The notes under the pieces were generated by a model, which worked only from the letters and a program-made list of their open reading frames with translations, ran no database searches and was not told the origin of the DNA. A DNA stretch of 64,000 nt from Glaucostegus cemiculus (Eukaryota): contig CDPCPM010000979.1 in assembly GCA_976551045.1 (NCBI GenBank), positions 992,001-1,056,000 on the forward strand, given 5' to 3'. Of the stretch, positions 13,900 through 51,520 are shown piece after piece. Numbering within the stretch: position 1 is the first letter of the stretch; each line of letters opens with the position of its first letter. A program made the translations under genes and the position numbers.

Positions 13900-13996
13900 A
13901 AACCACGATGATATGGAAGAACCCAGCAGGCCAGGCAGCATCTGTGGAGAAAAGCAAGCGATCAACATTTCAGGTCAGGACCCTTCTTCAGAACTG
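13900..13996 (-). repeat. Penelope-like terminal-repeat fragment with the best-preserved hammerhead-like motif
   Basis: Minus strand of 13961-13995: CAGTT CTGAAGA A GGGT CCTG ACCT GAAA TGTT GAT, followed by the shared ccacagatgctgcctggcctgctg segment. Confidence 0.6.
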
Positions 13997-14324
13997 CTTG
14001 AGGAGAAGCAGTGGCCGTAGGCTTTGATAAAGTGTCACACTAAAGGTTATTGTGCACAGAACATCAGGCAATTATAGAGCACATACATAACTGAAGGTTA
14101 ACATGCAGGTAAAGCAAACAATTCTGAAGGCAAATGATATGTCCGCCTTTATTGCAAGAGGATTTGAGCATAAGAGTAAGGGTATCTTGCTGCAATTACA
14201 TGGGGCCTCCGTGAAACTGCACTTGGAATACCTAGGGAAGACCATTTTGTCAGCAGAGGAGAGCATCAAAGCTTCACCAAAGTGATTCGTGGGATGAGAG
14301 GTTGTACAAGGAGAGTAGGTTAAG

Positions 14325-14628
14325 TGGTACTGGTACTGGCTTATTACTGTCACTTGTACCGAGGCACAGTGAAAAACTTGCCTTACATACCATTCGCACA
14401 AATAAATTCATTAAGTGCATTGAGGTAGTACAGGGTAAAAACAATAACAGAATACAGAGTAAAGTGTCACGACTAGAGGGGAGTGCATTGCAGGTGGACA
14501 CCGTGGGATAGAAGCTGTCCTTGAGCCTGCTGGTACATGCCCTCAGGCTCCTATATCTTCTGCCTGATGGGAGAGGAGAGAACAGAGAATGACCCAGGTG
14601 GGTGGGGTCTTTGATTATGCTGGCTGCT
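14325..14628 (-). mobile_element. Rex1 3' fragment with a small internal 3' UTR deletion
   Basis: ORF 14274..14678 has AASIIKDPTHLGHSLFSPLPSGRRYRSLRA. Tail (GTACCA)n. About 85 bp present in the 6487 copy is missing near 14500. Confidence 0.88.
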
Positions 14629-17407
14629 GGACAGCTTCTCTTCTCTGGACTGAAAGCTGGTTGAAGAACAGAACACAAAGTAGGAAAAAATGAGTAATTT
14701 TTGAGCTGGAAGGCTGTGAGTAGTTTTGTGCTGGGACACCCAGCTGTTCATAATCTCTCTCTTAATGAGGGGATCAAGTGTAATATGTCCAGATTTGTTG
14801 ACAATTCAAAACTGGGTGGCAGTGTGGATTGTGAAGAGGGGGCAGAGAGATTTCGGGGGATATAGAGAGAGGGCAAGGACACTGAACATGGAATAATAGA
14901 CGGTTAAATGTGAGTTATCCACTTTGGTGGATAAAATAGAGGAATGGATTTTGGTCGAAGGTGAGAGGTTGAAAGATGTTAGTTTCAGAGGGATCTTGAA
15001 GTTCTTGTACTCACATCACTGTAAGTTAACATACAGGTACAGCAAGCAATTAAGAAGCAAATGTTCTGCCTGCCTTTAATGCAGGAGTGTTTAAGTACAG
15101 GAGGAAGCAGACTGAGCCTACAGTCTGGAGTTTAACAAAACAAGAGGTGTTTTCATTGAAGTATATACAATGTTTACAGGGCTTGAATCAAGTGACCCTG
15201 CTTCTACTTTTATGTTCTTTTTGTGTTCTTTTGCTGTTGGTATGATTGTGTCTTCATTTGTCAGTGTAAGAAATATCAACATGACTTGATGCGGAAATGG
15301 TAAAGGTTTAAGGGATGTTCTCAATTGAAGTTCAGTCCTTTCGTGCATTAATTCTGCTCTCAAACAGTATTTATCATGTTTTGGTGCTAAAGCAAAAGAG
15401 CAGAGAAACTATTTTAGGTAGCTGTTAGCATAAACCTTTAAATTAAGACCCACAAATGGTTATATCCTCAATGTCCATGATATTAATAAAGATGCATAAT
15501 ACATCCAAATGAACAGCATTTAAACCCAAGTAAATTTATCAGTCATAAGCATTTGGTCTAGTAATGGGAGAGTTCTACTGCTGCCTTGTGCTCCTTGCTA
15601 GCGTAACACATGCTGAAATGAAATCATGATATCCGATCTGCTTGTTCAGATTGCATGTATTGCCATCTCTATTTATAAAACATTGAATCCCCTTTATCAG
15701 TCCTGACATAACACCAGAAACATGAAACCGCCTGGAACATGGGTAAGAAGGGAAGGCACGTGCTCAGTCTTGAATGATCCTTGATGATGCCAAGGGGGAG
15801 AGTCTCTAAAGAAGTCTGATCCCTCATCATTTGCCACGTTGCAGGGACAAGACCAGAGCCCAGATGGTTAAGAGCAAACGAATAGCACATCTGAGGCCTT
15901 CAGCGGAGTTGTATGTAGATTGTGCAAGACGCTGGTATGGAAAATGTAGCTGGCAACTGTGCAGCTGGAAACTGTTAACTCTGTGTAGCCTCTGGGGTTA
16001 CAATTGTGACTACAGCAATAATTACTCAACAAAAGCAGTGTTTAAAAATATTTCTCCATAAATAGCAGCTATACCTTCTAATCCGTTGTTTGGATGTCCA
16101 TAAAGGCTTTACTAGTGTAACTGTCTTTAGTTAACTGGATTTCTTTTAAATAAAATTAGGAATCTTCATTTATTCAATTTTCTGTACTGAGGGAAGTGAT
16201 ATAAAGCCAATGTAGCTCATGGGGAAATTTTACAGCACGCCTGTCTCTTCAGGGATCCAAACTGAATCCCCTCCCTTGTTCAATGGAGCATCTGTTTCCA
16301 TCAGTGTGGGCTCCAAAACTGTCCAGCTTCTAATTACATGCACATTAGCTTTCTGTAAATAGTCTGAAATCATTCAAATTCATTCCACTAAAAAGAATGC
16401 GAAGCATGTGACCAGCAAGAATTTTTCACCAGTCAGTTGAAATGAGTTTGGCAGGAGGAGAGGCAGGAGGAGAGGCATTAACGAAGGGCTGCAGTTTGCA
16501 CATTGAGCCAGGAGAAACAAACAGCACTGGAATAAAGACTGGCCCAGCCTTAGGAAGGATCGTGTCAGGGGTAGGACGAGGGGTAATGTGGGACAGATGA
16601 AGGTGGATGGCCTGGAAATTCTATCACATGACGCAACAATTATGTTCACGATGCAATATAAATGCATTGGGAAACAGTTCACAAACCATGAGCTGGGATT
16701 TACAATATGCTCCACAAAATCTGCTTTTCTCTTTTCACATCCTCATTTGATCTAATGTGCCAATGCATGGCAGCTTGGATGGGCACAGAGGTAGCTAACA
16801 ACGTACAGGACATCTGGATGCCTCGCCAGCAATTGTAATTGACACGTACGTAGCTTGCAGACAATGCTGGTCACTCATCCAGGCAAAGCCCTTCCCACAC
16901 CTGCAGCCTGTTCTGTCATTTGCCATTGTAGGTTCCAGTTGTGGAGTCCAGAAAGGGGAACTGGCTTCATGTGGACCCACTTGAAATGTTACACCGATAT
17001 TTACAGACAATCCAAGTAGAAAGGAGATGTCTTGTTTCTCTCCTCCCATCCACTTCCTCCCTTCACTCACACCCCTCACCTCCCTCTCTTCAGCTGCCCA
17101 CGTACTACAGGGCTCTTCCAGAACCAGCATGGCGGCAAAAGCATTGTTTCAGCATGCCCGTCGTCCACTCCATTGCACTTCCTTAAGCAGCCTGGCTTCC
17201 AGATGACAACACTGCCCACAGGTTGCACAGAGGGTCATGGCCCGCCCCTCCTGTTCACCAGCCACCCCTTGGCTCAAAGGCAGGTGGCAGCTGTGGCAAA
17301 ATAGTCCTTTGCCAGGATACCAGACGTGGATCTGCTTGTCTTGTTGCCTCCAGTCACATATCCACTGGATATTGAGGGAATGGGATGGTTCTGAGATGAG
17401 CTGAGCT

Positions 17408-17684
17408 GAGATAATATTTCTTTATTAATCACATGTACATCGAAACACACACTGAAATACATCTTTTTTGCGTAAAGTGTTCTGGGAGCATCCCACAAGT
17501 GTCACCGCACTTCCAGTGCCAACGTAGCACGCCCACAACTTCCTAATCCATACGTCTTTGGAACGTGGGAGGAAACCCACACAGACACGGGGAGAACGTA
17601 CAAACTTCTTACAGACAGTGGCTGGAATTGAACCTGGGTCGCTGGTGCTGTAAAGCGTTACGCTAACCGCTACACTAACCTGCC
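17408..17684 (-). mobile_element. V-SINE with Rex1-like tail
   Basis: Close match to the 12055-12371 copy. One half of the duplicated GGTTTCCTCC V-core is deleted. Confidence 0.88.
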
Positions 17685-18430
17685 TGGTATAAAGCACAGT
17701 TGACAAGCAGGGCCGTAGAAACAATGGGCACATTTTTGCTCCAGCACCAGCTCTAATGCCAGGACGTTATGGATGCTCCAGATCCTAATGCTGGTGTTGG
17801 CCCGTTAACAGTGGCACTGATCCTGCTGCCAGTGGTGTCGGCTGCTCACGTGATGCTTCAGTGGACTCCTCATGGTGCAACTGGGCAGCACAATCTTCCT
17901 CAGAAAACCCAGCTTCCAGGAGAATGTGTCCCTGAGCTTAGTGCTGGATTAAACTTGGGACAAGCACAGCACAGCAACCCCTTCAAAGGCAGCCCAGAAA
18001 CTGGCTGTCAGAGGGGTAAATAACTACAGCAGAAATGCAGGAAGAATTCAGGCTGCGAAGAGCTTTCCACAGATGCTGAGTTCCCTCGGCATCTCTGCTT
18101 GTGTCTTGGATTCCAGCATCTACAATTTTACTTGTTTTCCAAGAGAAAGTCATTTTATTACTATTATTTATTTGTTAGCTTTAATGATTTTAATTGATTT
18201 CTAGTGTGTGGAAAAAATTTTAGTTTTTAAATGAAAAAATATTGTTTCAATAAATTAAAAGAACTATATGTTTTTATTGTTACATGTGCACTGGCTGTGA
18301 ATGTTGAAGGCATTCGAAAATGTTCAGAGGATCCAGCCACACCAGTCATCAGCCTGGGGGTGCAGATTCTTTGGATGTCAAAGTGGTTCTGTAAGTTCAA
18401 CCAGCTACCTGTGCTGAGGTTCAACTATGC

Positions 18431-18609
18431 AAAGTGTTGGGAGCTAACCGCCAGGCTCCCGGTGGAAGATTGCATTGGGGGCCACACTAAAAGTGTTGGG
18501 AGCTAACCGCCAGGCTCCCGGTGGAAGATTGCATTGGGGCCACACTAAAAGTGTTGGGAGCTAACCGCCAGGCTCCCGGTGGAAGATTGCATTGGGGCCA
18601 CACTAAAAG
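18431..18609 (+). repeat. Tandem triplication of a 58-59-bp unit
   Basis: aaagtgttgggagctaaccgccaggctcccggtggaagattgcattggggccacacta x3, starting at 18431, 18490 and 18548. The copies differ only by one G. Confidence 0.95.
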
Positions 18610-19867
18610 CAAACAACATCTAACGCAGCAAATCTTTCTGAGGGATTTCTGTTCTTCGTGCTTTAACACCTTCAGAAATACGTCATCTATTGTTACCACT
18701 ACCACATGTTGCATTTTGTTCCAAAGCAGGCCATACATAGCTGGTATTACTGAGCCGAATTCTGCTGTATTAGAGCTTTCAATTAAACAGACAGGAAACT
18801 CATGATAAGTATTGGGTTCATGTTCCACATGAAACAGTACAGCGGACAGCTGGAAGAGGCAGTGAGAGGGGCAAGAAAGAGCATGAAGTGTGGCCTTGAA
18901 TACAGGGGTGTGTGATCCTTTAGCCATGGGTGAATCCACATTTGAGAAGGAAGAATCCCATAAGGAAACCAATGGGAAACTAATTTTCCAACACTTTTCT
19001 GGTAAGTTGCTCAAGAATGAGATTTGAGTTAGAGCAAGCCCCAGATGTTGGGACCCCTTTCTGCTGAGGTTATTGTGAGGAATCCTGGATGTCAAACAGT
19101 TCCATCCATAAAAGTTCAGAACAGCACCAGCTGATAGACTGTCCCCACTTGGTGCTTTCTTTCTCCTGGAATAATGATCATAGTACCTTGCCTAAGCCCT
19201 GTATTACTTACTTTAGACAGAAATGAAATGATTTCAGGCTCATTTGTCCTGCAGTGGCCTAGAAGGATTCTATAGCATTGAAACGTTTCGGGCTGAATTT
19301 GCAGCTGTAATAATGGCAAAGACATAGAATTTCATTTCAATTCTCTGTGAAACCCAAGCAACCTCTGGAGTCTGCAGACATGTAATTTACTTTGAAAGCC
19401 CACAGGATACGTTACTAAAACCCTCAAAGGTAGAAATTTTAGTAAAATTAGCCTTAAATGTTTATGCACAATTTTCATTTCTATTACAAAAGTTAAGACT
19501 TATTCTAGTCGTACCTGAATTGTAATCAGGTACTCAGCCACAACACTGCTGAAGTAAAACTGAAAAGAAAAAAGCCACAGATGTTGGCAACCTGAGGTAA
19601 AAACAGAGTGACAAAATATTCAGTATGTCAGGCAGCATCTGTGAAGAGAGAAACTGAGTGAATGTTTCAGGTTGATGACCTATAAACAAAACCAGTGAAC
19701 TACAAGTTTACTGCTGAACCACCATCCAGCTCTGAAAAACTGAGGTAAATCACATACTCACTTTCATCCCTGACTATGGCCCCAATCCATGAGCTACAAT
19801 CCTGATCACCAAACCCAGCTGGTTCCTCCTCTCTCAACCTGATTCTGATCATCAACCAGCTCCTTTG

Positions 19868-20660
19868 GCACACCTCAACGTCCCGGACCAGAGACACACC
19901 ACAGCGTCCTGGACCAGAGACGCACCTCAGTCCCCCGGACCAGAGACACACCTCAGTCCCCCGAACCAGAGACACACCTCAGTCCCCCGGACCGGAGACA
20001 CACCTCAGTCCCCCGGACCGGAGACACACCTCAGTCCCCCGGACCGGAGACACACCTCAGCGTCCCAGACCAGAGACACACCTCAGTCTCCCGGACCAGA
20101 GACACACCTCAGCGTCCCAGACCAGAGACACACCTCAGTCCCCCGGACCAGAGACACACCTCAGTCCCCCGGACCAGAGACATACCTCAGCGTCCCTGAC
20201 CAGAGACACACCTCAGCGTCCCGGACCAGAGACACACCTCAGCGTCCCGGACCAGAGACACACTTCAGTCCCCCAGACCAGAGACACACCGCACTCCCCC
20301 GAACCAGAGACACACCTCAGCGTCCCAGACCAGAGACACACCTCAGTCTCCCGGACCAGAGACACACCTCAGCGTCCCGGACCAGAGACACACCTCAGTC
20401 CCCCGGACCAGAGACACACCTCAGTCCCCCGGACCAGAGACACACCTCAGCGTCCCGGACCAGAGACACACCTCAGTCCTTCGGACCAGAGACACACCTC
20501 AGCGTCCCGGACCAGAGACACACCTCAGTCCCCCGGACCAGAGACACACCTCAGTCCCCCGGACCAGAGACACACCTCAGCGTCCCGGACCAGAGACACA
20601 CCTCAGCGTCCCGGACCAGAGACACACCTCAGCGTCCCGGACCAGAGACACACCTCTGTC
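19868..20660 (+). repeat. 26-bp minisatellite, about 30 copies
   Basis: Unit ggaccagagacacacctcag + (tccccc | cgtccc). It produces the artefactual 294-aa ORF 19865..20749 with a 26-aa period. Confidence 0.97.
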
Positions 20661-22680: not shown

Positions 22681-23074
22681 CCCCCACCCAGGCCTGACTG
22701 GGTGTTTCTAATATTTTTTGCTTGCATTTCAGCATTCAGATTTTCAGCATCTAGTGGTTTTTTTTGGATTTTCACCTTCTTTACCCTGGAATATTGAGTG
22801 GCCAGTCATGTCCGCCTTTCACTGTTTCCTTGATAGCAGCAATTCCCATGTGCTAATCAACAATCTGAGTTCATCTGTCTCACTGGGCAGACTCTGCATT
22901 GAACAGATACAACTTGGACTTCTGTCCCACCCACCTGCCTTACCATGTCAATGTTTGCTCTGTCTATTGGACTCATTTAGTTCTCCTATATTTGACTGCA
23001 CCGCCAACCCCGCTATTATCCAGGTCCCATTCTCTTGGCAAATTAGACTAAACCATAAAAAAAAAGTCAAAAAA

Positions 23075-23245
23075 ACCCTGCAGATGCTGAAAATCTGAAA
23101 TAAAAACAGAAAATATTGGAAACACTCAGTAGGTCAGGCAGCATCTGTGAAAGGAGAAACAGAATTTACATTTCAAGTCAAAAGTCTTTCATCTGATGAA
23201 GGGTCTTCAATCTCAAATGTTAACTCTGAATCTCTTTCCACAGGT
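23075..23245. repeat. Head-to-head inverted pair of Penelope-type terminal repeats
   Basis: Imperfect palindrome centred on ttcatc-t-gatgaa (~23188-23200). Each arm carries the TGATGAAG...GAAATGT-type motif. Confidence 0.6.
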
Positions 23246-25915
23246 ATACACTCATCGAGAGGAGACACAAGCCAAGGATGGCGTGCAGGATGCAGAGGCT
23301 CATAGGTTGAAAGGGAAGGGCCAGGGGAAAGCTATCTCTGGTCTGTCTGCGTGATACATTTATCCACACCATTTTTCAGAGTGAGGTGTACTCCACGGTT
23401 TGCCTGACTACTTTCCTGCCTCCTTGCTTTGTCTGATGGCTATCTATTCATTCTGTGACCACTTTCCTTAAGCTGCACAGTGACCACCTTTAGAAGTTCA
23501 CTACCCACATAACCCTCAGGCTCACAGCTGCACTGCTGTGCCTCCAGGTGGCCTCAACTTCTGAAACCATGTTCTCAAGCCAGCCAGACTAGAGGGCCCT
23601 TCCACAGATGTCGTCACCCACATTTCAGGGAGTGGTTTGGAATTCCCATGTCCTCTAATCTATGCAACACATAGGACTAAACACTCCCTCCCATACTATT
23701 GCTTTAGAAAGGGCCCCTTGGAATATAATCCAATCTCTATTCCCATTCAGTATCTGAACTCTAAAAATGTGAGAAGTGAGAAGTTTCCCCAGAGCCTTCC
23801 AATCAAAGCCAAAGCCTGCATCTCGAGATCTCTGCACTCTGAGCTTCACTGTCAAAAAGTGAGCCACTCCAAGCTGAACTGCAGTATATCAGCCTGGAAG
23901 ATAATGATTATGTTAAAATTATATTGATTGTTAAATCAGTGTTTTATTCTCATTTTGAGATTAGTTTAACAAATTGCTGTTTCCTGAACCAAGGATGTAA
24001 TGACCTGTAAAATATTGTACAGAGCCAACTGGAGGTCAGGTACGGTGCTGCTTAAACATGTTGGGGTGAAATTCTTCACTGGTTCCTGTGCTGAACATGA
24101 TGAGAACATCAGCCCTGGAGAACATCAGTATCTGCAGAATCAGTTCCATGACTTCAGAGCGGAGTACAACTAACGGCCAACAGACTAGGAAACCTCAGAG
24201 ACCAGTGACCAATTTTACAGAAACATAATTAACTCAGCTTTGTTCTTTCCTCTGGAACAGCCAATGGTCCTTCAGGAGACGGTGGCTGCCATTGGCTGCC
24301 ATCAGATCACCTCTTTTTTGTGTGGTTGTGGTCAGTCCCTTCTCTTCACCTACAGTAGCAACAATTCCAAAGCTGAGTACAAATGCCTTCACAGAGTCAA
24401 TACTTTCAGTTACTACATCAAGGACACAGTGAGGCCCTTGAGTCAGTTCTTTGAACGTGTTGCTTGAGTACCCAGGGCAACTTCCATGACTCTGGCCACC
24501 ACGTACACCTGTCACTGCGGTCAGTCGGTTACTGCAGATTCCAATGCAGAGGTCCCAGTAGAGTCCACGCCCTGTTACTTACTTGGCAAAATGACAAAAA
24601 AAATTGCAGCACTAGTTGTATATTGTGCAATGCTTCCCTGTGAAAGGCTGGTCACCAGAAAAGTGTACATAAACACTGAGAACCCCAGCATGACAAATGT
24701 CAGTCAACTTATCAAATTATATTGCAAAGCAGTCTGTCATCTTCACTCTCTCAGTCGAGTGTGATGCAATGCCTTCTGCGATGTGACTAATTCCCTGTGA
24801 GACAGCATCATTTGATAAAGGAGTGCTGAATCACCCCAAACAGAACAATAAGCAACTGTCATTGGAGGCGTCATTAACCTTTCACCCACTGTAAATAGCA
24901 AAGTGAGGTCCAGGAGATACTTTGCTTTTCATAGACATTCATCTGTCATTGTTGCAGGACCACTTCCTCTCACTCCTTTGGAAACATTACATTGGCTTTC
25001 CTTTTAACTTTGGGTGTTTGGTCACAAGGTGACAAAGCACCTTTGATGGTTTTGTAGCATCATCACTTTTAAACACATCGCTCACTGAGTTTTGGGGTAT
25101 TCTTCTTCCTCTCTGGAATAAAGCTGCACCTTATATATCTGGCATCACACTTTCTGTTGAAGGCCAAATGTTTCCTTGTCTTTTCCAGCATTGTTTCATC
25201 TTCATTAAATTGCTCATTGTTTGTCTCATCTGTATGTTTCACCAAACTTCTACTAATTCCTAAAAATGATTCAAATGCACCTGCTTTAACATTCTGTATG
25301 GACAAACTGAAATCCTTACTTAACGTTTGTTTTGTACACTTGTTAATTTAAGTTGAAAACAGTGTGCAAACATAATTTTGAATGAAAGACAAGAAGTATA
25401 CCTGCAGTGGATTGATATGTAAACGTGTTCGGAGCTCTTTGCGATTTTTTGTGAAATTCCACTCTGTTCAGAATCTAATAAGTCTGTTATTTTTCACGTT
25501 ACTTAAAAATTTTAATACACTTATTCCTCATTTCTTTTAATCGAAGCTCACACAGCGAAGATGCAGCCATGAACCAACTCTTTTCGATTCCATGGACTGA
25601 TCACTGAGAAACTGCATCTGATCACAATCCAGCCACTGACATCAAAGTGAAAATTGGAAGGTCACCTGAATCGGAGGTCACCATGGTCAGAGGTTTTTGA
25701 ATTGCATTCAGTTGTTCCTAATCCCACAACTAACATCACTAAAGCAGATGCTATCATCTCTCATTTTCCTACTGTTGGTGCAATCTTACTGCATACAACC
25801 CAGCTGGGGCAATTCCTTACATTAAACAATGACCCTATTTCAGAAGTATGTCCACTGCTGTAAAGCACTTCAGCACGTCATGAACCAGCTGGTTTAGGTA
25901 CAAATCCAGGGCAAG

Positions 25916-27449: not shown

Positions 27450-28095
27450 AAAATAAACCAAGCGCAGCTTTGGTGATTGTTCTGTGCTCAGACCAGAGGC
27501 AACCCTGAACTTTCTGTTGCCTGCCACCTCAATCCTCCAGCCCACTCATTCACTGACCTATCATCCTGTGACCTCCTCTACTGTCTCAATTTGAATCACC
27601 TTCTGTATTGGCATGTTGCAGTTTTTTGAACGTAATATTGAACTCTACAACTTCAGGTAGCTTGACTTCCATCTGCATCAGTCTTCCTTCTATAATGTTG
27701 CCTCAACTTGTTCGTTCTTTTTCCCTGCTTTTTCTTCCCTCTGGGGGTGAAGGACGTTCCCAGCCTGACCTGCTGGGTACATCTTCCTGCTCTGCATTTC
27801 ACATCTCCCACTTTCTTTTGTCTAGGTTCTCCCTCTCTAACTGCTGCCATTCACTCACTGGCCTTGTTTACAGTTTATCCCCATGGTCACCCTGGTTTTA
27901 CCCTGTCAGAGACATCCCTCTCACCCTCCATACAGTCTAACAAGCTGCTTTTATCTCCTTCCCAGTCTGGCAAAGAGTCTTCTACCTAAGGTGTTAGCCC
28001 TGGTTCTCTTCCTACAGATGCTGCCTGACCTATTGAATATTTCCAGCATTTTCTGGTTTTATTTCAGAATTCCAGCATCTGCAGTTTTTTTGATT
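27450..28095 (+). mobile_element. Penelope-like element relic (GIY-YIG C-terminus, 3' region and terminal repeat)
   Basis: Degenerate KRSFGDC...GNPELSVACHLN...NIELYNFR*, then a pyrimidine-rich region and gatgctgcctgacctattgaatatttccagc...attccagcatctgcag. Confidence 0.6.
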
Positions 28096-34300: not shown

Positions 34301-34354
34301 GGTGATGACAGTAAGACCTCTGCAAAAGTCAAGTGGAAGATTAGAACCGTACAC

Positions 34355-35010
34355 AGAAACAGAAAATGCTGGAAGAACTCAGCCAGGTAAGTAGCATCTT
34401 CTGTGGAACGGGAAAACAGTTAATATTTTGGGTCAGGGATCCTTCCTCAGAAGTAGGGATAGAATGGAGGGTTTACAGATTTCAAAGCAGAGCTGGGGGA
34501 GGAGTGAGGCATAAGACAGGAGAAGAGGATAGGTTACGATGATAAGGGGGATGAGTACTAACCATGAGCAAGGCTTCTTTAAGAAAGGGGGTGAGAAGGG
34601 GACATCAGCACAATAATGGGGAACAAGGAAAGGGTATTTGAAGTTGGGTCATTTATCTGAAGTTGGAAAATTCAAGGTTCATCCAGGTTGCAAAGTGCCA
34701 AGATGGAAGAGAAGATGCTGTTCTTCTAATTTATACTGGACCTCAGTAAGGCAGTGGAGGAAGCCACAGGCAGACAGGTTGGAATGGGAATGGGATTGAA
34801 CATCGAAGAGGCATGCAATAGGAAGCTCAGGATCACTTCTGTGGTCTGAGTGCAGGTAATCCGGAGAATGGTCACTGGGTCTCAGCATTGGGTCCCTCCA
34901 GTGAAGTGGAAGCCACAATGTGAACACCGAATGCCATAGACTAGACTGGAAGAAGTGCAAGTGAATGGTTGCTTCACCTCGAACGATTGTTTGAGTCCCT
35001 GGATGATGGG
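34355..35010 (-). mobile_element. Penelope-like element (Neptune-like): GIY-YIG endonuclease C-terminus plus terminal repeat
   Basis: FTCTSSSLVYGIRCSHCG (ORF 34882..35067) and PELPIAC...SHSHSNLS...KLEEQHLLFHLGTLQPG (ORF 34679..34960). Downstream on the same strand is CTGAGGAAGGATCCCTGACCCAAAATATTAACTG and the shared repeat. Confidence 0.85.
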
Positions 35011-36499
35011 AAGATTTAATGGGCTGAAGGGCTTGTTCCCATCTGTATGAATCGACAGCTTTACCACCCTTTACTCTTTAAAGACTAACTTAGCCAGACT
35101 TGGTCACATACTCTAATATTCCCTTATGTGGTTCCATGCCAATCTTTTTTCTAATAATACTGTAAAGCATCTTTATATATAACTATATAAACTATAGAAA
35201 ACTATATAAACATGGTGTTGTTCTTGTTTCTTGAAGACATGGTGAAATACAGGGAGACATGAGAGGCACAAGATTAAAGAAATAACTTGCAGTGTGTCAG
35301 ACTGAGATAGTTGAAGGTTGTGCCAGTGATAGAAGGGAAGTACATGGTCTGTTTGTGTACATTGCGTGTTTTGAATGAAAACTTTGCCAACTGCTAAGAT
35401 CACGTCAGATACAAATTGCTTGCAGATCATCAATGTAAATAATGCACCGTAGTGGGGAAAAGGTCTGTTAGTACATTGGGTGCAAGGCTGATTCGACTGA
35501 CAATTGATGAAGCCACCTTCCTTCACACCATCCAAGTGCACAATAGCAGAACACAGCAGGCACACCACAGACAAAATATTAGTTGGTCCACTGCACATTA
35601 CCTTCTGAGGCATGGAAATGTCTCCAGTTCCTTGCCTTTATGTAACACCTTTCTAAAAACAGCAAAAAGCTCTTACAGTTAATTACTTTTTTTCTCTCAG
35701 TGTGAGCACTGTTGTAATGCAGGAACCACAGAAACTATTTCTCACAAGTGGATGTCATCAACTGTTATTTCTGTGCTGCTTAGGGATTCAAGAACTTGTT
35801 CTGTAACCTTTGGAAGGCAGATGTTGGAACATATAAAGATGACTCAGCTCTGTTTAGCACAGTATGAGTGAACATTTATGTAGGAGTTATTACTTCATTA
35901 AAGGCCATTTAGCTGGCACCATGTTGCAGGATACAATGGGACATGACTAAGATCATATCCTTGGTCTCTAATGGAGAAAATTTATATCCGCAGAAATAGT
36001 TGTTCTCGATCCATTGTAAAGAAAATGTCAAAATTAGTTTTTAAAAGGAAGGGTGAAGTGTTTTATGGAGTGATCACAGGAATCTGTGCAGCTGCAGGAC
36101 TCATTTCTGACACTGACCCAAGCACAGTTCAGGTCTCTACCCAGTGATCTGGAGAGTAGTGTCTGCACACAGAGCTTCAGGAGTACCGGGATTCATGCCA
36201 CAGGCACCCCAGGCAGATGTCTATAAATCTTTACTGGAAGGTGGATGGCTAGCTTTTTCCAAGGGGCTGGATGAGATCAGTGGTCTCCCAGAGGAAAGTT
36301 GCCGTTAATTGTTGGGAAACACCTGGTAACTGTCCACTTCACAGTTAGCCTTAACTCAGCATGAGCAAACATCTAAGAGGTGGTGCTCCAACTATCTGCT
36401 GGCACTGATCAACCCAGTCTACTGGCAACACAGTGCAATACACCCTGAGGCAGTTGGCCAGTGACTTAAACTCAGTAAACTACCTCTCAGTCCATAAGC

Positions 36500-39698: not shown

Positions 39699-40084
39699 TG
39701 GACCCAAATGGATCAGGTGTGATTAACAAGTATTCACCACCCTCTAACACAGCACGAATAGCATTTGTGTCCCTGCCCTACCACAGACATTCCCTCTGTT
39801 CTGTCAACCCTGCCCCTACTCAGCAACTTCAAATGCACTGGTTTTCTCACTTTTCCTCTTATGAGAAAAGGTCATTGATTTCATATCTCCACAGATCCTG
39901 CCTGACCAGCTGAGTCTCTCTAGCACAGTCTTTATCTCAGACTTCCAGCATCTGCAGTCTTATATTTTTCAATGTGTCACTAATTATCCTGTTGTAACCT
40001 TGAGTGGGAATGTTGAACTCAGCTGGCAAAATGTTGACTCACTGACTTCTGACTGTTACTTTGTCCAGAGCGACTGTATGAAGA

Positions 40085-40894: not shown

Positions 40895-42504
40895 GATCAA
40901 CTCCATCAGCTACTCACCAAGTTATCCAGGCAACGGAATCATTTAGATGTAGTCTCCTAAATACTGCTTCATGACTGCCTGGACAACAATTATTAGTCTC
41001 ATTTTCATTCTGTGATTACACCAAGCATCACAGGCACTGATCGATTGTCATTCAGCTGAGGTGCCACAAGGTCATGTAACTAAGTAACCATCTCCCTGGG
41101 AAACCACAAGAAATGAAGAGTCCTTGCAATTTGTGCTGGAAAAGATCCAGAGAAGAGATGCAAGAAAGCTTCCTTAGTTTTAAGAACTTGAAGTAGGCTC
41201 AAGGATCTGCACAATAAAATCTGTTTACTTGCAAGGAGCTCAGACTAGAGATGACCTGATGAAGGGCCATAAAATAATTAAAGGACTGCCAAGAAATCCT
41301 AATGATAGATTATCTAGGTTTATCAGATTGAGAAGGTTGAAACCAGGTAACCAGGAAAGGACTGGACTTTAATCACATGGAATTAGAAATTTACAGCACA
41401 TTTGTTGACTTGTCTTCATTTCCTAGGGAACTACACATCTCTAGATTACAATAGCTGCTGGTGCACTGGGCACTGGCTCTGTACAAGTTGGATCAGTCTC
41501 CAGCTGGATGCAAAAGGTAAATATCTTTAGAAATAGCACAGAGCACATCACTTGAGGAGCCCCGAGAGGAATTTTCCAAAGATCATTAGTCCCTGATTGC
41601 CTTCAATATTTTTGTGGCTTTTGCCTCTCACAGGAGATACATGATTGACAGGGTGTGGGAGGTATGGAGAAACTGTGACCCACATGGGAGACTTCTGGGT
41701 GCAAGGGCATTAAGTAAAAACTTTAGCCACAATGGACTAGCCATCCTAAAGTGGTGTAGGTGTGAAGGACCACTGGTCATTTCCTGCCTACAAACTTATA
41801 TATTCCCCACACAAAACAGACCTAAATTGACCAATTAAAGAACTGGAAGGTTAAGTATAGCAGCTTTTGAAAATAACCAGAAAAGATTGTGAAATAATCT
41901 CATGAGTATGCCTGACAACATGGCAACTTCATGCTGTCTGCTCATTGACTGAGTGTCTAATGGGCCCAATGATGAGTATCAGCAGCTTGTTCTGGTCTCC
42001 CACATGATGCCAAGGTGACATGCAAGGCCTTGCTGCCAGGCAGGGGTTTGCCACTGGAGATCAGACTGGCTTGAGAACACAAACCAACAATGACAGAGCC
42101 ACAAAAGGGAAGTGACTCATTCATCATGTCCTGGGAGCTAACTCACAGACATGGATGACAGCATTCACTTGTGCCTTCAATGCCTTTGACTGATCACAGG
42201 AAAGAGGACCTGAAATCAAGATCTCAGCTCTGGCACTAAACTTTGATCAACTAGACACCATAGACACATGCCCTCCTGTAGCTTTCAACACTGAGATTTC
42301 CTGCAGCAAGCACCTCCAGCTGCTTGGAATAGACCACTCCTACTTCCTCTGCAGAATCTCTCAAACTCATTGGAAAGATAAGTAAACCAGAGTCCGTCTC
42401 CTCTCCAAGTCCCATATCCCCAGCAGTGAGGCTCTAATTTCATTCAGTTGGCTCCTTGGGCACACCATCACCTCTGGGTGTCCAGCACCAGGCTCCTGAA
42501 CAAA

Positions 42505-42895
42505 AGAACCGAACAGCGGAAGAGCTCAGTGCAGTAAGGTGGAGGCAGAGTGTGTATGTTGATGCTTCAGGTTGTGACCTTACATCAGGACCGAGAAGGA
42601 AAAGGAAAGATTACCTGTACGTTAGCAGTATGAGAGAGGGGTAGGACAAAGGCTGGCGGGTGATAGGTGAAACCACATTTGGTGGTAATGGAACCAAGTG
42701 GGGGAGTGGGAGGAGATGGGGAAGGTGGTCAAAGGGAACTCTGTACCACCCTCCCTCAGACTGCAATTCACTGGCAATCTTTCCCTCAGCCCTGAAAATG
42801 TCAACATACACCTGTTGCCTCCACAGATGCTGCTTGAATTGTTGAGTTCCTTCAGTGTCCTTTTTTTTGCTGTGGATTCCGACATTTGCAGTTAC
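42505..42895. repeat. Penelope-type terminal repeats in inverted arrangement
   Basis: A left arm at ~42505-42600 (minus CTGATGTAAGGTCACAACCTGAAG) and a right arm at ~42790-42895 (cctgaaaatgtcaacatac...ccacagatgctgcttga) flank a purine-rich segment. Confidence 0.55.
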
Positions 42896-43754
42896 CAGGC
42901 TCCTGAAGCAGGCACTTTTCTGAGCTCAGTCATGGAAAGAGGTTATCAGCAGACAGAGAACTGCAGCTGTGCCCAGAGCTTCCTGAGAAAAAACAACGCA
43001 ACATCCCAACTGACTTGGGAATTCCAGGTTCAAAAGTCCTCAAAAATGGAGAAGCAGTAGTCAGGATGGTATTGAGAACCTCAGCTCCACACATCAGGAG
43101 CATACAGAAACCCTGCACAAAAGCTGGAAGGATTACATCTTTTCATAAATACCCACCAGTGGGCACCTTCGTCCTCCATACAGGAGTCAACAGCTTCAGC
43201 ATTGATCTCAACAGCCACCTTAGAATTCACAAAACTAGAGTGAATGCAAATCATCCCGAATTGTAATGAGGATGGAGGTTTATATTTACTACAAAGATCA
43301 GCAGTAGGTGTGGGCAGATTGCCACTGGCAGCAGGTCCTACCTGCTATGATTTTCCCAAAACAGTGGCAGAAGCACATTCAGCAATGAATTACAAGAGGA
43401 AAATGAGATAATTCCTTGATGGGGAAAGGGCAGAGTGGTGCGACTAGTTTAAACACATTGCCAAAAACAAATGGCAAAAATGTATTCAGCCAAAAAGTCT
43501 TTGTGTGTTGTGAGTAAAACAAAATACTGTGAAGATATACTTCGAAACAAACGTACATAGAACTCCAGTAATGGACTTCCAACTGCCGGTGACGTTTCTA
43601 ATGCTCTTTTTGCTGTGGCCACTGGGGAATCTCTCATTCACCACATCATGAAGTACAAAAGAAAAACCTGCAGTGACTTAGCATCTTTCATGACAAGTAC
43701 AGTTTGAAGAGTAATGTAGGAAGCACAACAGCAGGATTCTGTAAAGCAAGATCC

Positions 43755-44063
43755 CACCGCATGAACCACACGCCTGCAGTCCCGTGTCACCGCATGAACC
43801 ACGTGCCTGCAGTCCCGCGTCACCGCATGAACCACACGCCTGCAGTCCCGCGTCACCGCATGAACCACACGCCTGCAGTCCCGTGTCACCGCATGAACCA
43901 CACGCCTGCAGTCCCGCGTCACCGCATGAACCACATGCCTGCAGTCCCGCGTCACCGCATGAACCACACGCCTGCAGTCCCGCGTCACCGCATGAACCAC
44001 ACGCCTGCAGTCCCGCGTCACCGCATGAACCACACGCCTGCAGTCCCGCGTCACCGCATGAAC
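43755..44063 (+). repeat. 33-bp CpG-rich minisatellite, about 9.3 copies
   Basis: Unit caccgcatgaaccacacgcctgcagtcccgcgt. It gives 11-aa repeats in four open frames. Confidence 0.97.
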
Positions 44064-45809
44064 CTGTTTTGATTTTGTTCATTCGGGAGGAAGTATTGAA
44101 TACAACACCACAGCTAACTTTTCTACCTTTCTTCAAATTAGTGCCTTGAAATATTTTATTTCCATAACTTATGTTTGATGAGAGGACAGGCAGGGGGGCC
44201 ACAATTTGGTGCCTCATTTGAGAAATGGCACTGCTGCCAATGTGGCTTTCCTTCAGTTGTGCATGGGAGCATTAGCCTAGGTTCGTGTGCCTCAGGATAG
44301 GAACTTGAACCCACAACATCCTGACTCAGAGGCAAAATCCTATCCTGTCTTGATCATATCTTACATAACGAATTCAAAAGAGTTGTTCCAGTATGTTTAC
44401 AGTGTCCGAAACCAGCTCTGTCACATTTTCTTATGTGGTCTGTCTGGAAGCCATAACAAGCTGCTTGTAACTTACCATAACTCCTCTCAACTACAACAAT
44501 AACACATTCCAACAACTTTCAGATAGATCTCACTATAATGTTACAGCCGTAGTGTCTTCAGGTTCTGTGCTTCTAGTTACAAAGGCAAATAACAGATCAA
44601 TCAACATAACATCCAATATTGAACATAATGACTCAACTAATGGAAGAGTCTGGTACAACCAAGAATCAAAACCCATGCAATCCCCACATAACTTACAACA
44701 GAAATTCTCAAAAACACCTGAAAATGTTGTCTGATGCACTCACCACCACAAAATAAAGATTGATCATAACCAATGTTTTAACACCATAAGACTTGATAAG
44801 CAAAAGAAAACTTAACTGCTATTTTTATATATTATTTCCTTTGGAAAGATGGACTTGAACCTTCACTGAAGGAGCATTAAGCAAAAATCACATTTTAATA
44901 TCAGCATATATATCCAGCCACTATTGAAGCAGAGTGTGTCTTTATAATGCAATACCTCTTGTTTTGAGATCATCATGTTCTCCCCAACGATAGGGGGTTG
45001 AGTTTTCTTCGTAAAACACATTGTCAGTGTTGTGATAGTCAAATGTTAATCAGTGCGATACCTTGCATAAACTAATTGCGGAAGAAACACTATGAACTAC
45101 ATTTAACATGCTCAGCTCTGCTTTGTAATGCTTTCCGGCATTTTCTGTCTTATTTCAGGTTCCCATCATTTATAATGTTTTGATTTTGGAATAAGTTCAG
45201 ATAGCTTGTATTAAAAATTCTACAACAGAAATAAAGTTACAACTCTTGAATCATTTAGGACAGAAAATCTTTCAGCTGGTACCCAAATCCATCACTGAAC
45301 CAAGAAATAATTCAATCATTCACCATAATTATCAAAATGAATGTTATTTATAGGATTCTTCCTCAAAAATATCAGCAGTATATCAGCATAAAAATCAGAT
45401 TTTCTCAATAGCAAATATTACTAAATCCAAATCAGTCTAGAGTGGGGTTGTGACCAGCAACACAATAGAAGTTGAGAACACAGAGAACCCAGTGCAAAAT
45501 CAGCTAAATACCATCCATAATACATGCAGTGAAATGGAAAACAGTAATGGAATTTGGCATTGATTTAGTTGGAGATGAAATGACTGTTGTTTTTAATGAA
45601 TAATGCATGACTGCTTCACGGGCAACAAGATGCTGATCTAACAGTTGATCCTATGTTAATTAAGGTGGTATTGGGCATAAAATTGAGGGAAGAGTTGTCT
45701 TTGGTTTCACAAGTATATTGTTGCAAAGCATTTTTAAGAAACTTTGGTATTCTTCCAACATTGTGATTAACATTCATCATTCAATAACAGTGTGAAAGTA
45801 AAGCTGCAG

Positions 45810-46020: not shown

Positions 46021-46089
46021 ATGGACACAGGATTGGGAAGCTGAAGGTCTTACTCTGGTTCCGATGTTCCCGTTGCCAGCACTTGTTAT

Positions 46090-46412: not shown

Positions 46413-47299
46413 CGGTTATGCACAAACTATTTGAATTTATCTACAAACTTCAGTGTCTTCAGTTCAAAAACCAAGGCCTGGAATTTGCAGTCAGCAGAGA
46501 AACGATGAAAGATGGCAGAGATCTCATGCTCTGTGTAGTGTAGACTTCATTTTTCTGCTGTCAGTTGGAATCAGTCATCAGATCAAGGGATGTCCCTAAG
46601 CTCCAGCAACAGTATGTTATAAAGCAACTAAATAGCAAATCACATTGAAGATTTCTCAGAGAGCAAACCAGGAATAAAAAGCACAATTTCAGCTACCACC
46701 TTATACATTGTAGAGCATGAAATAAAACCTAGAATGTATACAGAAGATTAAGGCTGAAATATTTTAAAAAAACTCAAACTGTATTTTATAATCCATCAGA
46801 TTTTGAACAATTTATCTCAGGGAATTACTAGTCGTGAATTTAAAATTAGTTCTCAGAGCCAGAGATGTTGCTAAACAGTAAAAATGGCTCAGCACTCCAA
46901 CAATTCACTTCACCACTTGTGCAACTTCAGGTATTGACCACTGATTTCAGGGTGACACTGGAGGAGAAGGTAGCATGGAGTGCTGAGAGTTAATCACTGA
47001 CAGGACTCTGGATTTCTGAATTTACTCAGCCTCTTGCATTCTCCAGAAGCTGCTGTCAGTCTCACTAAATGACTGTGGGAGAGCAGGAAGTGGGTCAGTA
47101 GCCGAGCTAAGCTGAGCCAGATGGCAGTTTGGTTCAGGGGAGGTCAGGAAACAATCTGGACCAAGTGCAAAACACAGGGTTATTTCCTAGTGAGCCAGCC
47201 ACCACTGGGCCCACATCTAGAAGGATAGAAAGTAGGAGCCGTTCAGTTCAAGTCTGCTGCACCATTCAATACAATCAGTACTGCGGTTCTATCGCCACA

Positions 47300-47575
47300 G
47301 AAGAGGACACAAAACATTCCAAAACTTTCAGGGAACCAAAAATCTAAGGGAGGTGAGGTGAAATGAAATTAAATTAGTATTAGTAGGAAAAGGGGTGCTG
47401 GAGAAATTAATGGCACTGAAAGCTTACAATGCCCAGGACCCGAATCTGTGTCCCAGAGCAACTGATCATCATTTTCCAGAATGGTGGAATCTGGAATATT
47501 TCCTGCAGACTGGAGGGTGACGAATTTAATGCCATTATTTAATAGGGAGCAAGAAAGAAAACTACAGACCAGTTA
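47300..47575 (+). mobile_element. Degenerate CR1 RT fragment
   Basis: VLEKLMALKA...PADWRVTNLMPLF...NYRPV. Confidence 0.6.
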
Positions 47576-48714
47576 CTATAAAAACCTGATAAAGTTGTTC
47601 ATATTTTATTTTAAGTATACTGCATACTACACACAGACTGCAAGCAGGCAAAAAAAGTAAACAAAAAAAAATGAGCTGTGTTTTAACCTGTTCCCTCATT
47701 CAGGCAACATTGTATTAGTGAGCATTTAACAGATCCCAAAATAACAGGATTAAGAAAGCTTTGCTTTTTGTCTGATTTGTAATAGCCCCAACTGGTAGAT
47801 CTCTTATACAATACTTATTACTTTTAACCACTAAAAATGAAACTATATCAAATGATAGCTTTGTACCAGCTTAAAGCTCATGTAACATGGCTCACTTTGG
47901 AGGCCAGGACTGAAACTGGGGTGGGGGGGTGAAGGGAGGGAGAGAAATTGTCCAGCTGACCAAGGACACCATTGCTAGAAATGGCAAGCAGCTTCTCTGT
48001 GTTGGCCAAGGATCCAGTTCAGTCCAGGAGCAAAGTCACCACCCCTGGGAAACGCAGATCCTACTGAGGCAAAAAAACAAGGAGGGGCAAGAAGAGTCTT
48101 GCAGCAGAAACAAGCGTATCCCCAAAATCTGATGTCCACAAGACTGCCTGAAAGGTTTGCTGATTTGAAAGAAAAATCCAAAGGAATGTGCACTCTCTAC
48201 TTATTTTCAGTACATTTAAATGCAGTATGAACAAAAATACAAGTATAAAATTCAAACTAAACATAGTGCAAGAACAATTTATGCTGTCAGTCTTTCATGT
48301 TTGGCGCTGAGGAATCAGAATAACAGGAACAGAATGCAGACTGTAAATTGAGCTTGTGAACGATCCATGAAATTGGCCTTGCCTATGGAATGATTTGAAG
48401 TTCCTTTCCTTTACAAGAAAAATAATTCCATGACATTGCGACAGCCCTGCTTACAACATGAAAGTGCTTTAATAATTCAACCGCAAAGTGATGACTCTGG
48501 TGCAGGGGCAGCCAACCTCACTGGGAGTTACAACTTATTGTAGACGATCAAGACCATAGAATGATACAATGCCAATGGTACATTCTACCCAAACTGTCTG
48601 CACTGGCACTTTGAAAGAACCACACAATTAATCCAAGTTGTCATTTCTTTCCCCATAGACCTATAATTTATTTCCCTTTTAAATATTTATTCAATCCTTT
48701 TGTTAATTTTAAAG

Positions 48715-48913
48715 CCAAAGAGCTGGAAAGAATCAGCAGGTTAGGTAGCAACTGTGGAAAGAGAAATAAACTTATGGTTTCAGATTGAAGCCCCTTCCTC
48801 AGCACTGGGAAGGGGAGAAAGTTATTTTAAGTTGCAGACAAGCAGGAGTACAAATGGAAGGGCAGACCAGGGTTACCAAGGCAATCTAGAGACAAGAGAC
48901 TGCAGATCCTGGA
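48715..48913 (-). repeat. Penelope-type terminal-repeat segment
   Basis: Minus CTGAGGAAGGGGCTTCAATCTGAAACCAT and tgctacctaacctgctgattctttccagc. Same orientation as the GIY-YIG relic at 50415-50640. Confidence 0.55.
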
Positions 48914-49484
48914 ATGTGGATCCACAGAAAGCATCTGGCCCAAAGGGAGTCTCCGGCTATGTCCTTAGATCCTGCGCAGATCAGCTGGCGGGAGACCCTC
49001 TCCTGGACCAACCATGTCGATGCTATGGACAAGAAAGTTCACCAGTGCCTCTACTTTCTCAGGAAGCTAAAGAAATTTGGCGTGTTCCCTTTGACACCAG
49101 TTTTTACAGATGCATCATAGAAAGCATCAGATCCAGATGTATCACACTCAGTATGGCAACTGCTCTGCCTGTGACTGCAAGAAACTGCAGAGAGTTGTGG
49201 AAACAGCCCAGGACAGCACAGACACCAGCCTCCCCTCCAAGGACTGTCTACATTTCTTGCTGCCTCAATAAAGCAGCTGACATAATCAAAGACCCCACCC
49301 ACACGAGACATTCTCTCTTCTCCCCCCTCCCATTGGGCAGAAGATACAGAAGACTAAAAGAACGTACCACCAGGCTCAAGGACAGCTTCTATCCCACTGT
49401 TATAAGACTATTGAACAGTTCCCTAGTACGATGAGATGGACTCTTGACCTCACAATCTACTTTATGTCATGTCCTTGCACCTTA
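48914..49484 (+). mobile_element. Rex1 LINE with most of the RT core deleted
   Basis: VDPQKASGPKGVSGYVLRSCADQLAG (RT start) is joined directly at ~48993 to LSWTNHVD...HQCLYFLRKL (post-RT). The C-terminus and part of the 3' UTR follow. Confidence 0.85.
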
Positions 49485-49485
49485 G

Positions 49486-50410
49486 GGTCATAGAGCACTG
49501 CAGCACAGAAACAGGCCCTTCAGCCCATCTAGTCCAGGCTGACCTGATATTCTTTCTAGTCCCATCTACCTGCACCCATACCAGATCCCTCCAAAGCCTT
49601 CCCATCCATGTCCCTATCCAAACTTCTCTTAAATATTTCAGTTGAACCCACATCCACTTCTACTGGTGGCTCGTTCCAGACTCACACCATCCTGTAAGTG
49701 AAAAAGTTCTCCTTCGGATATTTCAGCTTTCACCCTACACCTATGTCCTCTAGTTCTTGTTTCTCCCAACCTTAGGGAAAAAGCCGGCTTGCATTCACCC
49801 TATTTACTCCCCTCATCTTGTACACCTCTAAAATTTCCCCTCATTCTCCTGCGCTCCAGGGAGTAAAGTCCCAACCTATTCAACCTTTCCCTATAACTCA
49901 GGTCCTCAAGTCCTGGCAACATCTGTGTAAATTTTCTCTGCACTCTTTGAAGTTTATTGATATCTTCCTAGTAGGTAGGTTACCAGAGCTGCACACAATA
50001 CTCAAACGCAGGCACAGTAGTGTAGCAGTCAGCGTAACGCTATTACAGCACCAGCGACCCGGGTTCAATTCCGGCCACTGTCTGTAAGGAGTTTGTATGT
50101 TCTCCCTGTGTCTGCGTGGGTTTCCTCCGGATGCTCCAGTTTCCTTCCACACACATACGGGTTAGGAAGTTGTGGGCATGCTCTGTTGGCGCCTGAAACG
50201 TGGCAACACTTGCGGGCTGCCCCAGGAACACTACACAAAAGATGTGTTTCACTTGGTGTTTTGATGTACATGTGAATAATAAAGATATCTCATCTTATGT
50301 CACCTCACCAACGTCTGATACAACTTCAGCATAACTTCCAAACTCCTGTACTCAATGCCCTGATTTATGAAGGTCAATGTGCTAAAAGTTCTCTTTACAA
50401 CCTGCCCTGC
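49486..50410 (-). mobile_element. CR1 3' part, interrupted by a SINE
   Basis: CR1 3' UTR (gggctgaagggcctgtttctgtgctgcag) and ORF C-terminus. The sequence resumes after the SINE at cctcaccaacgtc. Confidence 0.88.
50008..50297 (+). mobile_element. V-SINE with Rex1-like tail
   Basis: B box GGTTCAATTCC, V core gcgtgggtttcctccggatgctccagtttccttccaca, and tail tttcacttgg...gatgtacatgtgaataataaagatatctcatctt. Confidence 0.9.
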
Positions 50411-50414
50411 CTAC

Positions 50415-50640
50415 CTAAGGGGCTGTTCCTCCAGTTTGCATTTGGCGTCACGATGGAGTGGAGGATAGACAGGACCGTGTGGGAAAGGGGAGGAGAAATA
50501 AAATGTCCCACAAGTCCAGAGGGCCATGGTGGACAAAGCAGTCGCCTAGTCTGCACTTGGTCTCCCCGGTGCAGTGGCGGCCACATTGAGAGCACCAAAT
50601 GCAATAGACAAGAATGGAGGAGGTGCATGTGAATCTCTGC
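50415..50640 (-). mobile_element. Penelope-like GIY-YIG relic
   Basis: The minus strand reads FTCTSSILVYCIWCSQCGRHCTGETKCRLGDC, the same family as 34679-35010. Confidence 0.75.
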
Positions 50641-50769
50641 TCCCTGCAGTATCGGGGAGGGGAGGGGACGGATGGGTGAACCAGGGCAATTCAGGATTAA
50701 TGAGGCAATCTAATGTTTACAGGGCTATCTGGTTATTAGATTACTGGGTTTGGGTGACTGCCTTTTTCT

Positions 50770-51520
50770 AAATAGAAAAGTTCTGCAGTAAGGTTCTCCA
50801 TCCAAAATATTAACCAGGTTTTCTGTCTCGACAGGCACTGCCTGTGAGTCTGCCACTCCACTTCCAGCATTCTCCTTCTGGTTTCAGGTCTGACAACAGA
50901 TCAGGTCTGCATTTCACAGATTTACAGGTCCCTTTGCTTGGTTTCTCTCCCTCTGGTTGCCCTCATGAAGCCAGTGAGGAAATAGCTCTGTAAACTTTGG
51001 AATGGTCCTGGAACCCTGGCTTCGCCCTGTCCGAGAGATTCCCTTTGTCCTGTTCTTCCCTCAGCCACCTCGTCTGCAACTTGAAACTAACTTGCTTTAG
51101 AGGAATTCAACCAGGTCAGGCAGCGTCGGTGAAGAGAAGTGGACAGTCAATGTTTCATGCTGAGACAGGTCGACTCTCTATTTCCCTCCACAGATGCTGC
51201 CTGACCTGCTGAGTTCCTCCAGCAGTTTGGTTTTTTTTGCAATGTCCAGATGAAGGGTCTCGACCTAAAGTGTTGACTGTGCATTTCCCTCCACAGATGC
51301 TGTCTGACCTATTGAGTTTCTCGAGCAGTTTGCTTTTTGCTACAGATTCCAGCATCTGCAGTCTCTTGTCTCTTTTCTCTTTGCTTTCTCACTTTCTGTT
51401 CTTGTGAAGGATCTGTGACCTGAAATGTTAACTCAATTTCTCTTTCCATGCATGTTGTCTGCCCTGCTGAGTGTCTTGAGCATTTCCTGGTTTTATTTCT
51501 GATTTCTAGCATCCGACTTT
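50770..51520. repeat. Cluster of Penelope-type terminal repeats in tandem and inverted orientation
   Basis: Repeated ccacagatgctg(c/t)ctgacct...gag...cagca...ttccagcatctgcag units. Hammerhead-like segments occur at ~51245-51278 and ~51400-51432. Confidence 0.65.

Follow-up and report, generated by a model that had tools for sequence, protein, structure and literature searches.

Introduction

Minimal hammerhead ribozymes occur in the pseudo-long terminal repeats (pLTRs) of metazoan Penelope-like elements (PLEs), the fish elements Xena, Poseidon and Neptune included; they are described as scattered single copies, of low activity and cleaving only as dimers (Cervera and De la Pena 2014, PMC4209133). 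In the anole Penelope element PAc (Poseidon, Anolis; Frangieh et al. 2024, PMC11167929), reverse transcriptase (RT) initiates internally, a 30-40-nt tail is found, unprocessed RNA is the main template and the ribozyme is assisted by protein. The Penelope element of Drosophila virilis has an internal promoter, with a start 46 bp before an intron (PMC2377424), and an intron of this element terminates at the 5′ edge of helix I (PMC4209133). A CX2-5CxxC linker between RT and endonuclease marks the Neptune and Nematis clades (Craig et al. 2021, PMC8557442). Non-LTR retrozymes are defined by two consecutive units with complete hammerhead motifs (Li et al. 2026, bioRxiv 10.64898/2026.07.22.740005).

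The present study concerns a repeat dispersed over 64,000 nucleotides of the genome of Glaucostegus cemiculus (assembly GCA_976551045.1, contig CDPCPM010000979.1, positions 992,001 to 1,056,000; this whole stretch is called the window, and positions are given in its own numbering). On sequence grounds, the window repeats appear to be decayed pLTR ends of Penelope-like retrotransposons, of Neptune type by their linker motif, which carry a minimal type I hammerhead. As such the finding is real but ordinary, adding one more host to the known Penelope hammerhead pattern. The ends of the copies bear on the open question of what these hammerheads do. The short copies devoid of an open reading frame (ORF) probably arose by run-off cDNA synthesis on uncleaved transcripts of the element itself and are not a separate family. 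The copied RNA, uncut and apparently beginning at the first base of the ribozyme, fits the in vitro result obtained with the anole element, and the copy ends argue against cleavage and circularization as the route to short copies. What is new beyond the known motif, namely the extra G and the target duplications that point to a capped start, is a modest addition. In the open literature, we found no earlier account of Penelope strong-stop copies or of a cap-linked extra G, and no match for shark Neptune PLEs; the window family may stand in Repbase or Dfam, which lay outside this search.

The hammerhead found here has the core, the extra base between positions 9 and 10.1, the G10.1-C11.1 pair and the palindromic, loopless helix III of the minimal hammerheads of PMC4209133, and its copies are likewise mostly solitary and tied to truncated PLEs. 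It differs from the Schistosoma form in its stem II (4-5 bp, against 7-8 bp) and from the forms described in that paper in having one subfamily that reads CUGAUG-C-A (18 of 165 copies). Shark, skate and Callorhinchus have no entry in the paper's supplement file 2. As in PAc (PMC11167929), the ORF begins inside the pLTR, close to the hammerhead, there are two 3′ ends 30-40 nt apart, and uncleaved RNA appears to be the template. Unlike PAc, the present family has the C-X4-C-X2-C linker of Neptune/Nematis, no intact copy was found, and the likely start codon is located some 20 nt beyond the cut site instead of 26 nt before it; the pile-up of 5′ ends with an extra G has no counterpart in the accessible text on PAc. 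The arrangement of RT, linker zinc motif and GIY-YIG endonuclease with CCHH is that of Neptune-clade PLEs, and so are the 5′ truncation of insertions, the adjacent inverted copy and the tail (PMC8557442). With non-LTR retrozymes, the family shares pLTR-derived, non-coding, hammerhead-bearing copies, many of them monomers (bioRxiv 10.64898/2026.07.22.740005). Two consecutive units with complete motifs are absent from the window; they are found in the arrays of a second family, exemplified by contig C4 and treated below.

The repeat and its parent element

An iterated profile identified 19 copies of the repeat in the window, 18 of them at E<0.01, these E-values being inflated since the profile was made from window copies. 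Five dinucleotide shuffles of the window yielded only two matches to the same profile (E 0.21 and 0.48). An independent profile, built from genome copies with four loci left out and covering only the part downstream of the hammerhead motif, recovered 15 window copies at E<0.05. The dispersal claimed in the sequence-only reading was thus borne out: 12 of the 13 single sites that it named were recovered, and five copies lie within 50763-51526. At the 45110 site there is only a weak fragment (score 30.5), devoid of the hammerhead motif. Forty fixed-position 10-kb stretches of the genome contained 56 copies, which extrapolates to about 4×10^5 copies in 2.85 Gb; the density in the window is about twice that of the sampled stretches.

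The two GIY-YIG relics said to precede the repeat on its own strand are present, one strong (34691-35016, minus strand) and one weak (27480-27584, plus strand). Some 210-350 bp separate the end of each from the repeat, and in the consensus the distance from ORF stop to cut site, 373 nt, is near this spacing. When an RT piece from locus L018 was used as protein query, the genome gave 12,662 candidates, of which 150 were scored, and 20 loci with long open frames were retrieved for element anatomy. In 19 of the 20, the repeat follows the RT anchor on its 3′ side, in the same orientation. The frames of the retrieved loci show RT, a C-X4-C-X2-C linker (L101 and others) and GIY-YIG with CCHH. The Pfam matches in L092 (RVT_1, E 0.003; GIY-YIG, E 0.05) are both under the curated cut-offs, and a Pfam search with the frameshifted L018 frame found no match. 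A 5′ repeat copy in L106 continues directly into the N-terminus of the ORF; in L099 the element body begins at the repeat tail, adjoining an inverted copy. Presence of the repeat at both ends of the ORF, 3′ in 19 of 20 loci and 5′ in L106 and, by its tail, in L099, indicates that it is a pLTR, in agreement with the initial assignment to Penelope. This pLTR is composed of the end of the 3′ untranslated region (UTR), the hammerhead and the first codons of the ORF.

Every copy also has a pyrimidine tract ending in YAG at about +5 to +23 after the predicted cut, right before the likely start codon. It resembles a 3′ splice site, and a second such tract precedes stem I.

Hammerhead anatomy and decay

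Searching the genome for the core pattern with a 13-nt spacer gave 8,277 matches, against 98 for the reversed control. For a view independent of the motif, we relied on 90 copies picked by a downstream 32-mer, blind to the motif; 40 of them, with a 5′ end at -45 or earlier (positions counted from the predicted cut site), provided the motif consensus. Their majority bases form the CUGANGA...GAAA core with an NUH triplet, here GUC, a stem I of 4-5 bp, a stem II of 4-5 bp and the G10.1-C11.1 pair. The extra A after A9 is found in all 40, and helix III is, by majority, an ACGU palindrome without a loop, in which CpG decay is apparent. The minimal type I anatomy initially described (extra A, 4-bp stem II, loopless ACGU helix III) therefore holds for young copies. 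The consensus drawn by eye from the window was right in its core, most of its ambiguity codes being CpG decay; its GUU triplet belongs to older and minor subfamilies, the young majority subfamily having GUC.

Subfamilies were compared in an alignment of 397 copies; the 165 retained had a pyrimidine-rich upstream part and a core identity of at least 0.55, and motif-selected central matches were left out. The inner pair of stem I is C-G in young copies and U-A, accompanied by the GUU triplet, in the older subfamily (12/21 versus 3/127). This compensatory change amounts to one event between subfamilies, its p of 8e-10 being counted on copies; stem II differs only by a one-sided U-A to U-G change. 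For the covariation proposed as a check on the stems, the alignment offers this one pair in stem I. With covariance models, the window itself was scanned, and the Rfam hammerhead families had no match there at E≤10.

Most copies have decayed. G12 is altered in 16 of the 40 blind copies, the full core is kept in 11, and core plus palindrome in two. Only one of 15 window copies retains all 11 core bases. This best motif is where it had been placed, on the minus strand at 13995-13960, with C3 at 13991; in an energy model that leaves out tertiary contacts, its active dimer comes to +4.2 kcal/mol and the most favorable dimer fold to -15.3. The window copies are predicted to be inactive as ribozymes.

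Two variant groups were also seen. The CUGAUG-C-A copies (18/165; e.g., L091, L134, L136, L279) have a shortened stem I and either a changed A9 or the extra base placed between G8 and A9. Another subfamily has a stem I mismatch (L001, L003-L007, L031, L038, L039); six such copies share about 800 nt downstream and were probably amplified within a larger duplicated unit.

Copy ends and the origin of short copies

In the 90 blind copies, the 3′ ends are bimodal, at about +62 to +72 and +101 to +107, which is the Penelope tail; the corresponding ends in the anole element are its two internal sites of RT initiation (PMC11167929). The 5′ ends are ragged, out to -1045, and 13 copies reach the endonuclease. 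This unbroken spread into the endonuclease indicates that short and long copies form one continuum. Within it, 5′ ends cluster at the front edge of stem I: of the 57 that fall between -100 and +20, 20 lie at -35 to -28 (p 3e-10). No such enrichment is seen at the cut site (6/57 at -3 to +3, p 0.11, three of them resembling one duplicated insertion). An adjacent inverted partner accompanies 29 of the 90 copies.

A pattern for copies starting at A(-32) had 271 matches in the genome. Among the 100 listed, a hand count of the preceding base gave C 43, G 38, A 13 and T 6, so that 57/100 have a non-templated base, against 3/57 at the control site; the control at -57 shows how sharp the break is and is too sparse for a base count, many of its matches being variants or nearby breaks. 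Seventy copies were retrieved for junction detail. Of 37 true truncations whose preceding base is not C, 22 have G before the start (background 27%, p 4e-5), as do 12 of 20 solo copies. Target duplications adjoin the start in L308 and L330, and in L324 with one extra G.

These ends suggest the following scheme. Transcription would start at the A of CAGT (-32), a site that fits an initiator consensus. The element's RT would begin internally, at +67 or +103, for which the anole Penelope offers an in vitro precedent, and copy 100-135 nt until it runs off the capped RNA, in many cases with one more base added opposite the cap; the product would then be inserted alone or, as is often the case, joined head to head with a second product. 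A longer copy would result if RT set out from the downstream pLTR of a tandem transcript and terminated early. To cut, the ribozyme would need to be a dimer or to be assisted by protein; the copied RNA was uncut, and the inserted copies would decay neutrally. That the template is uncleaved follows from the copies spanning the cut site. The internal promoter of the D. virilis element (PMC2377424) is a precedent for a start within the pLTR, though not at A(-32). With somewhat less confidence than we hold the run-off origin itself, we favor the view that the stumps, some 10^5 in number, preserve a fossil record of a capped transcription start, the hammerhead lying at the very 5′ end of the uncleaved template.

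Several observations weigh against this interpretation. The G excess is not significantly above that at a control site at -21 (4/12; Fisher p 0.18), a control that is small and confounded by internal deletions (7 of 30 and 30 of 70 retrieved). Five of seven A/G letters before cut-site starts are also G, and general untemplated addition may accordingly explain the excess. A target duplication of at least 6 nt was found in only 8 of the 70 retrieved copies, five of the eight having 3-4 extra bases. No sequencing run that contains the stretch is recorded as RNA; in RNA reads from a related species both strands are represented and neither starts nor ends pile up, which says nothing on cleavage. 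Non-CpG core positions are slightly better kept than flanks (0.925 versus 0.896, p 0.056), and young copies, too, favor other dimer folds (active -14.1 versus -29.3 kcal/mol, same energy model). As to the parent, we found no intact ORF in the family, the longest frames being 523 amino acids (open) and 654 (with one stop), and the clade was placed by a linker motif common to Neptune and Nematis.

Among other explanations, the one that survives best, though unlikely, keeps the same element and ascribes the 5′ pile-up to RT stalling or template switching at the base of the hammerhead, not to the 5′ end of the transcript. The pile-up does coincide with the stem I boundary; the ends of inverted partners, too, are often at about -17 to -35, and a few junctions have a stem I pentamer common to both arms (L107). 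The break, however, is sharpest at a single base and is preceded by excess G, solo copies included; CAGT stays common in subfamilies whose downstream partner has lost pairing, and a 4-bp helix would be a weak barrier.

The sequence-only reading had raised the possibility that the many ORF-less copies form a retrozyme-like non-autonomous family, self-cleaving, circularizing and mobilized as a unit. In its favor, 50 of the 90 blind copies start at -40 or later and are non-coding, head-to-tail short units occur at 51140-51526 and in L233, and retrozymes are reported in the sole chondrichthyan genome of Li et al. 2026 (bioRxiv 2026.07.22.740005). Yet the ORF-less copies have the same 3′ ends as ORF-bearing copies of the autonomous element and grade continuously, at their 5′ ends, into those with endonuclease. 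Besides not being enriched, starts at the cut site had only 22 pattern matches, eight of them internal deletions, and the window trio at 51140-51526 lacks two consecutive intact cores, its members keeping 5, 8 and 9 of 11 core bases. We consider such a family very improbable as the source of the short copies. As to the circular junctions suggested as a check, the joints listed (15 of 88) in ordinary RNA-seq of a related species include no back-joint at the cut site. Less probable still is a third explanation, whereby the pile-up marks a 3′ splice site to which host or element exons were joined before copying: the pyrimidine tract and CAG conserved right before the core (CAG before -30) and the D. 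virilis intron cited above speak for it, but target duplications adjoin A(-32) with no exon between (L308, L330, L324), the base at -33 (G 38, A 13 among the 100 matches listed) is unlike exon ends, where A is commoner than G, and the upstream flanks have no exon in common.

A possibly telomeric Penelope family outside the window

Widening the spacer of the core pattern raised the genome count to 11,993 matches, against 309 for the control. The 100 matches listed were mostly of a different hammerhead, with stems wholly unlike those of the window family. It is found once per 1.1-1.35-kb unit in arrays that run from the start of contig C4, and an intact element, at locus L432, lies inside the C4 array. 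The family is also present on C192, C235, C40, C64, C80, C138, C188 and C216, in head-to-tail, polarized arrays near contig ends.

ORF1 of L432 encodes 855 residues with a GDSL-like domain at its end (feature score 0.93, a lead); a PDB search with this end found no match. ORF2 (740 residues) overlaps ORF1 at a slippery heptamer, in the -1 frame; its matches to RT (E 5e-7) and to GIY-YIG (E 9e-6) exceed the cut-off. Identity is 100% over 601 nt in 40 scored of 1,785 candidates, and ORF2 relatives at 45-71% identity are numerous. Of the 40 scored copies, 34 are no farther than 320 kb from a contig end and point their 5′ end outward; of the remainder, three have the same polarity 0.8 Mb in, two are reversed and one is internal. 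Element and units alike run into (CCCTAA)n at their 3′ ends, and where the 5′ end is truncated, such a tract precedes it.

Inspection of the hammerhead at the 5′ end of the full element shows a helix III of 5 bp with a loop; the minimum-energy fold lacks stem I but includes stem II and most of helix III. The non-coding units (L177-L180, L431, L444, L450; contigs C4, C188, C80) each carry an identical, loopless minimal hammerhead, with an active dimer at -22.7 kcal/mol versus -29.0, and their arrays are interleaved with (CCCTAA)n tracts of up to about 1 kb and more. The family, with its intact, identical copies, is a directly testable element and offers a natural pair of complete and loopless hammerheads.

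We give even odds to the proposition that this young, intact Penelope lineage acts like a telomeric retroelement while keeping its endonuclease, that is, as an Athena/Terminon-like chromosome-end element in a vertebrate. Against it, contigs often break in arrays, and a contig end is hence not a proven chromosome end. Of the two results of this study the telomere-linked family is the more surprising, and it matters more if true. It resembles Athena and Terminon elements (PMC6431247, PMC8557442), and it differs from them in retaining the endonuclease, telomere-attached PLEs being described in these sources as endonuclease-less. The latter are, according to Li et al., not found in vertebrates (bioRxiv 10.64898/2026.07.22.740005). 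No vertebrate telomeric endonuclease-bearing PLE appeared in the open literature, as judged from titles and the beginnings of abstracts, and no description of the second family was found there; with Repbase, Dfam and subscription journals outside the search, it may already be catalogued.

Copies of the second family also recur every 63-87 kb at G000:C1:9.83-10.48 Mb (L155-L164, L423-L430), each near an RT frame that, from its features, is presumably R2-like. This may be a duplicated array, or one like rDNA. On the same contig (L425-L426 and L436), pol frames of LTR type or retrovirus-like, about 520-530 residues long, were seen.

Features of the window

The copies and relics of the window are listed below, together with the intact element of the second family. 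Four scored copies of the cluster at 50763-51526 keep 5-9 of the 11 core bases.

Table 1. Positions of pLTR copies, hammerhead motif and endonuclease relics in the window, and of the intact second-family element
Feature	Position	Strand	Remarks
pLTR fragment, only part downstream of motif	6077-6185	-	
pLTR fragment, only part downstream of motif	9302-9379	+	
Best pLTR copy of the window	13895-13996	-	alignment spans about -33 (hammerhead front edge) to +50, counted from predicted cut site
Minimal hammerhead motif, 11/11 core bases	13960-13995	-	C-to-U changes in helix III and stems
Predicted cut of the 13960-13995 motif	between 13964 and 13963	-	
pLTR fragment, short	18065-18129	+	
pLTR copy, decayed, with tail	19570-19709	-	
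pLTR fragment, weak	22683-22753	+	E 0.084
Head-to-head inverted pLTR pair	23072-23245	.	junction at motif front edge (about -26 and -28)
GIY-YIG C-terminal relic, very decayed	27480-27584	+	iE 3e-4, weak
pLTR copy, older (GUU) type	27932-28092	+	downstream of 27480-27584 relic
pLTR copy, core 10/11	34329-34482	-	downstream of 34691-35016 relic
GIY-YIG endonuclease relic, frameshifted	34691-35016	-	E 7e-16 and 1e-12
pLTR fragment with tail, without motif	39858-39963	+	
pLTR copy, 3′ UTR upstream	42490-42623	-	
pLTR fragment	42794-42898	+	inverted relative to 42490 copy
pLTR copy, core 10/11	48710-48830	-	
GIY-YIG relic, absent from the first list	50418-50642	-	
Five-copy cluster	50763-51526	.	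order: one plus, one minus, three plus head to tail
Intact second-family element	L432:2181-4400, 6963-9527, 9506-10000 on into L433 (G000:C4:74001-94000)		

A further Penelope coding relic, not previously listed, was seen at 23276-23349 (minus strand, E 2e-4). It lies only 70 bp from a pLTR copy, which implies an internal deletion. The head-to-head copies at 51099-51220 and 23072-23245 are long hairpins; a miRNA-like Rfam match at 51099-51220 was rejected as spurious, being merely the head-to-head repeat pair. The window also contains minisatellites with units of 58, 26, 33, 22 and 35 bp (18431-18609, 19869-20660, 43755-44064, 62219-62699) and several other dispersed repeat families with LINE-like fragments.

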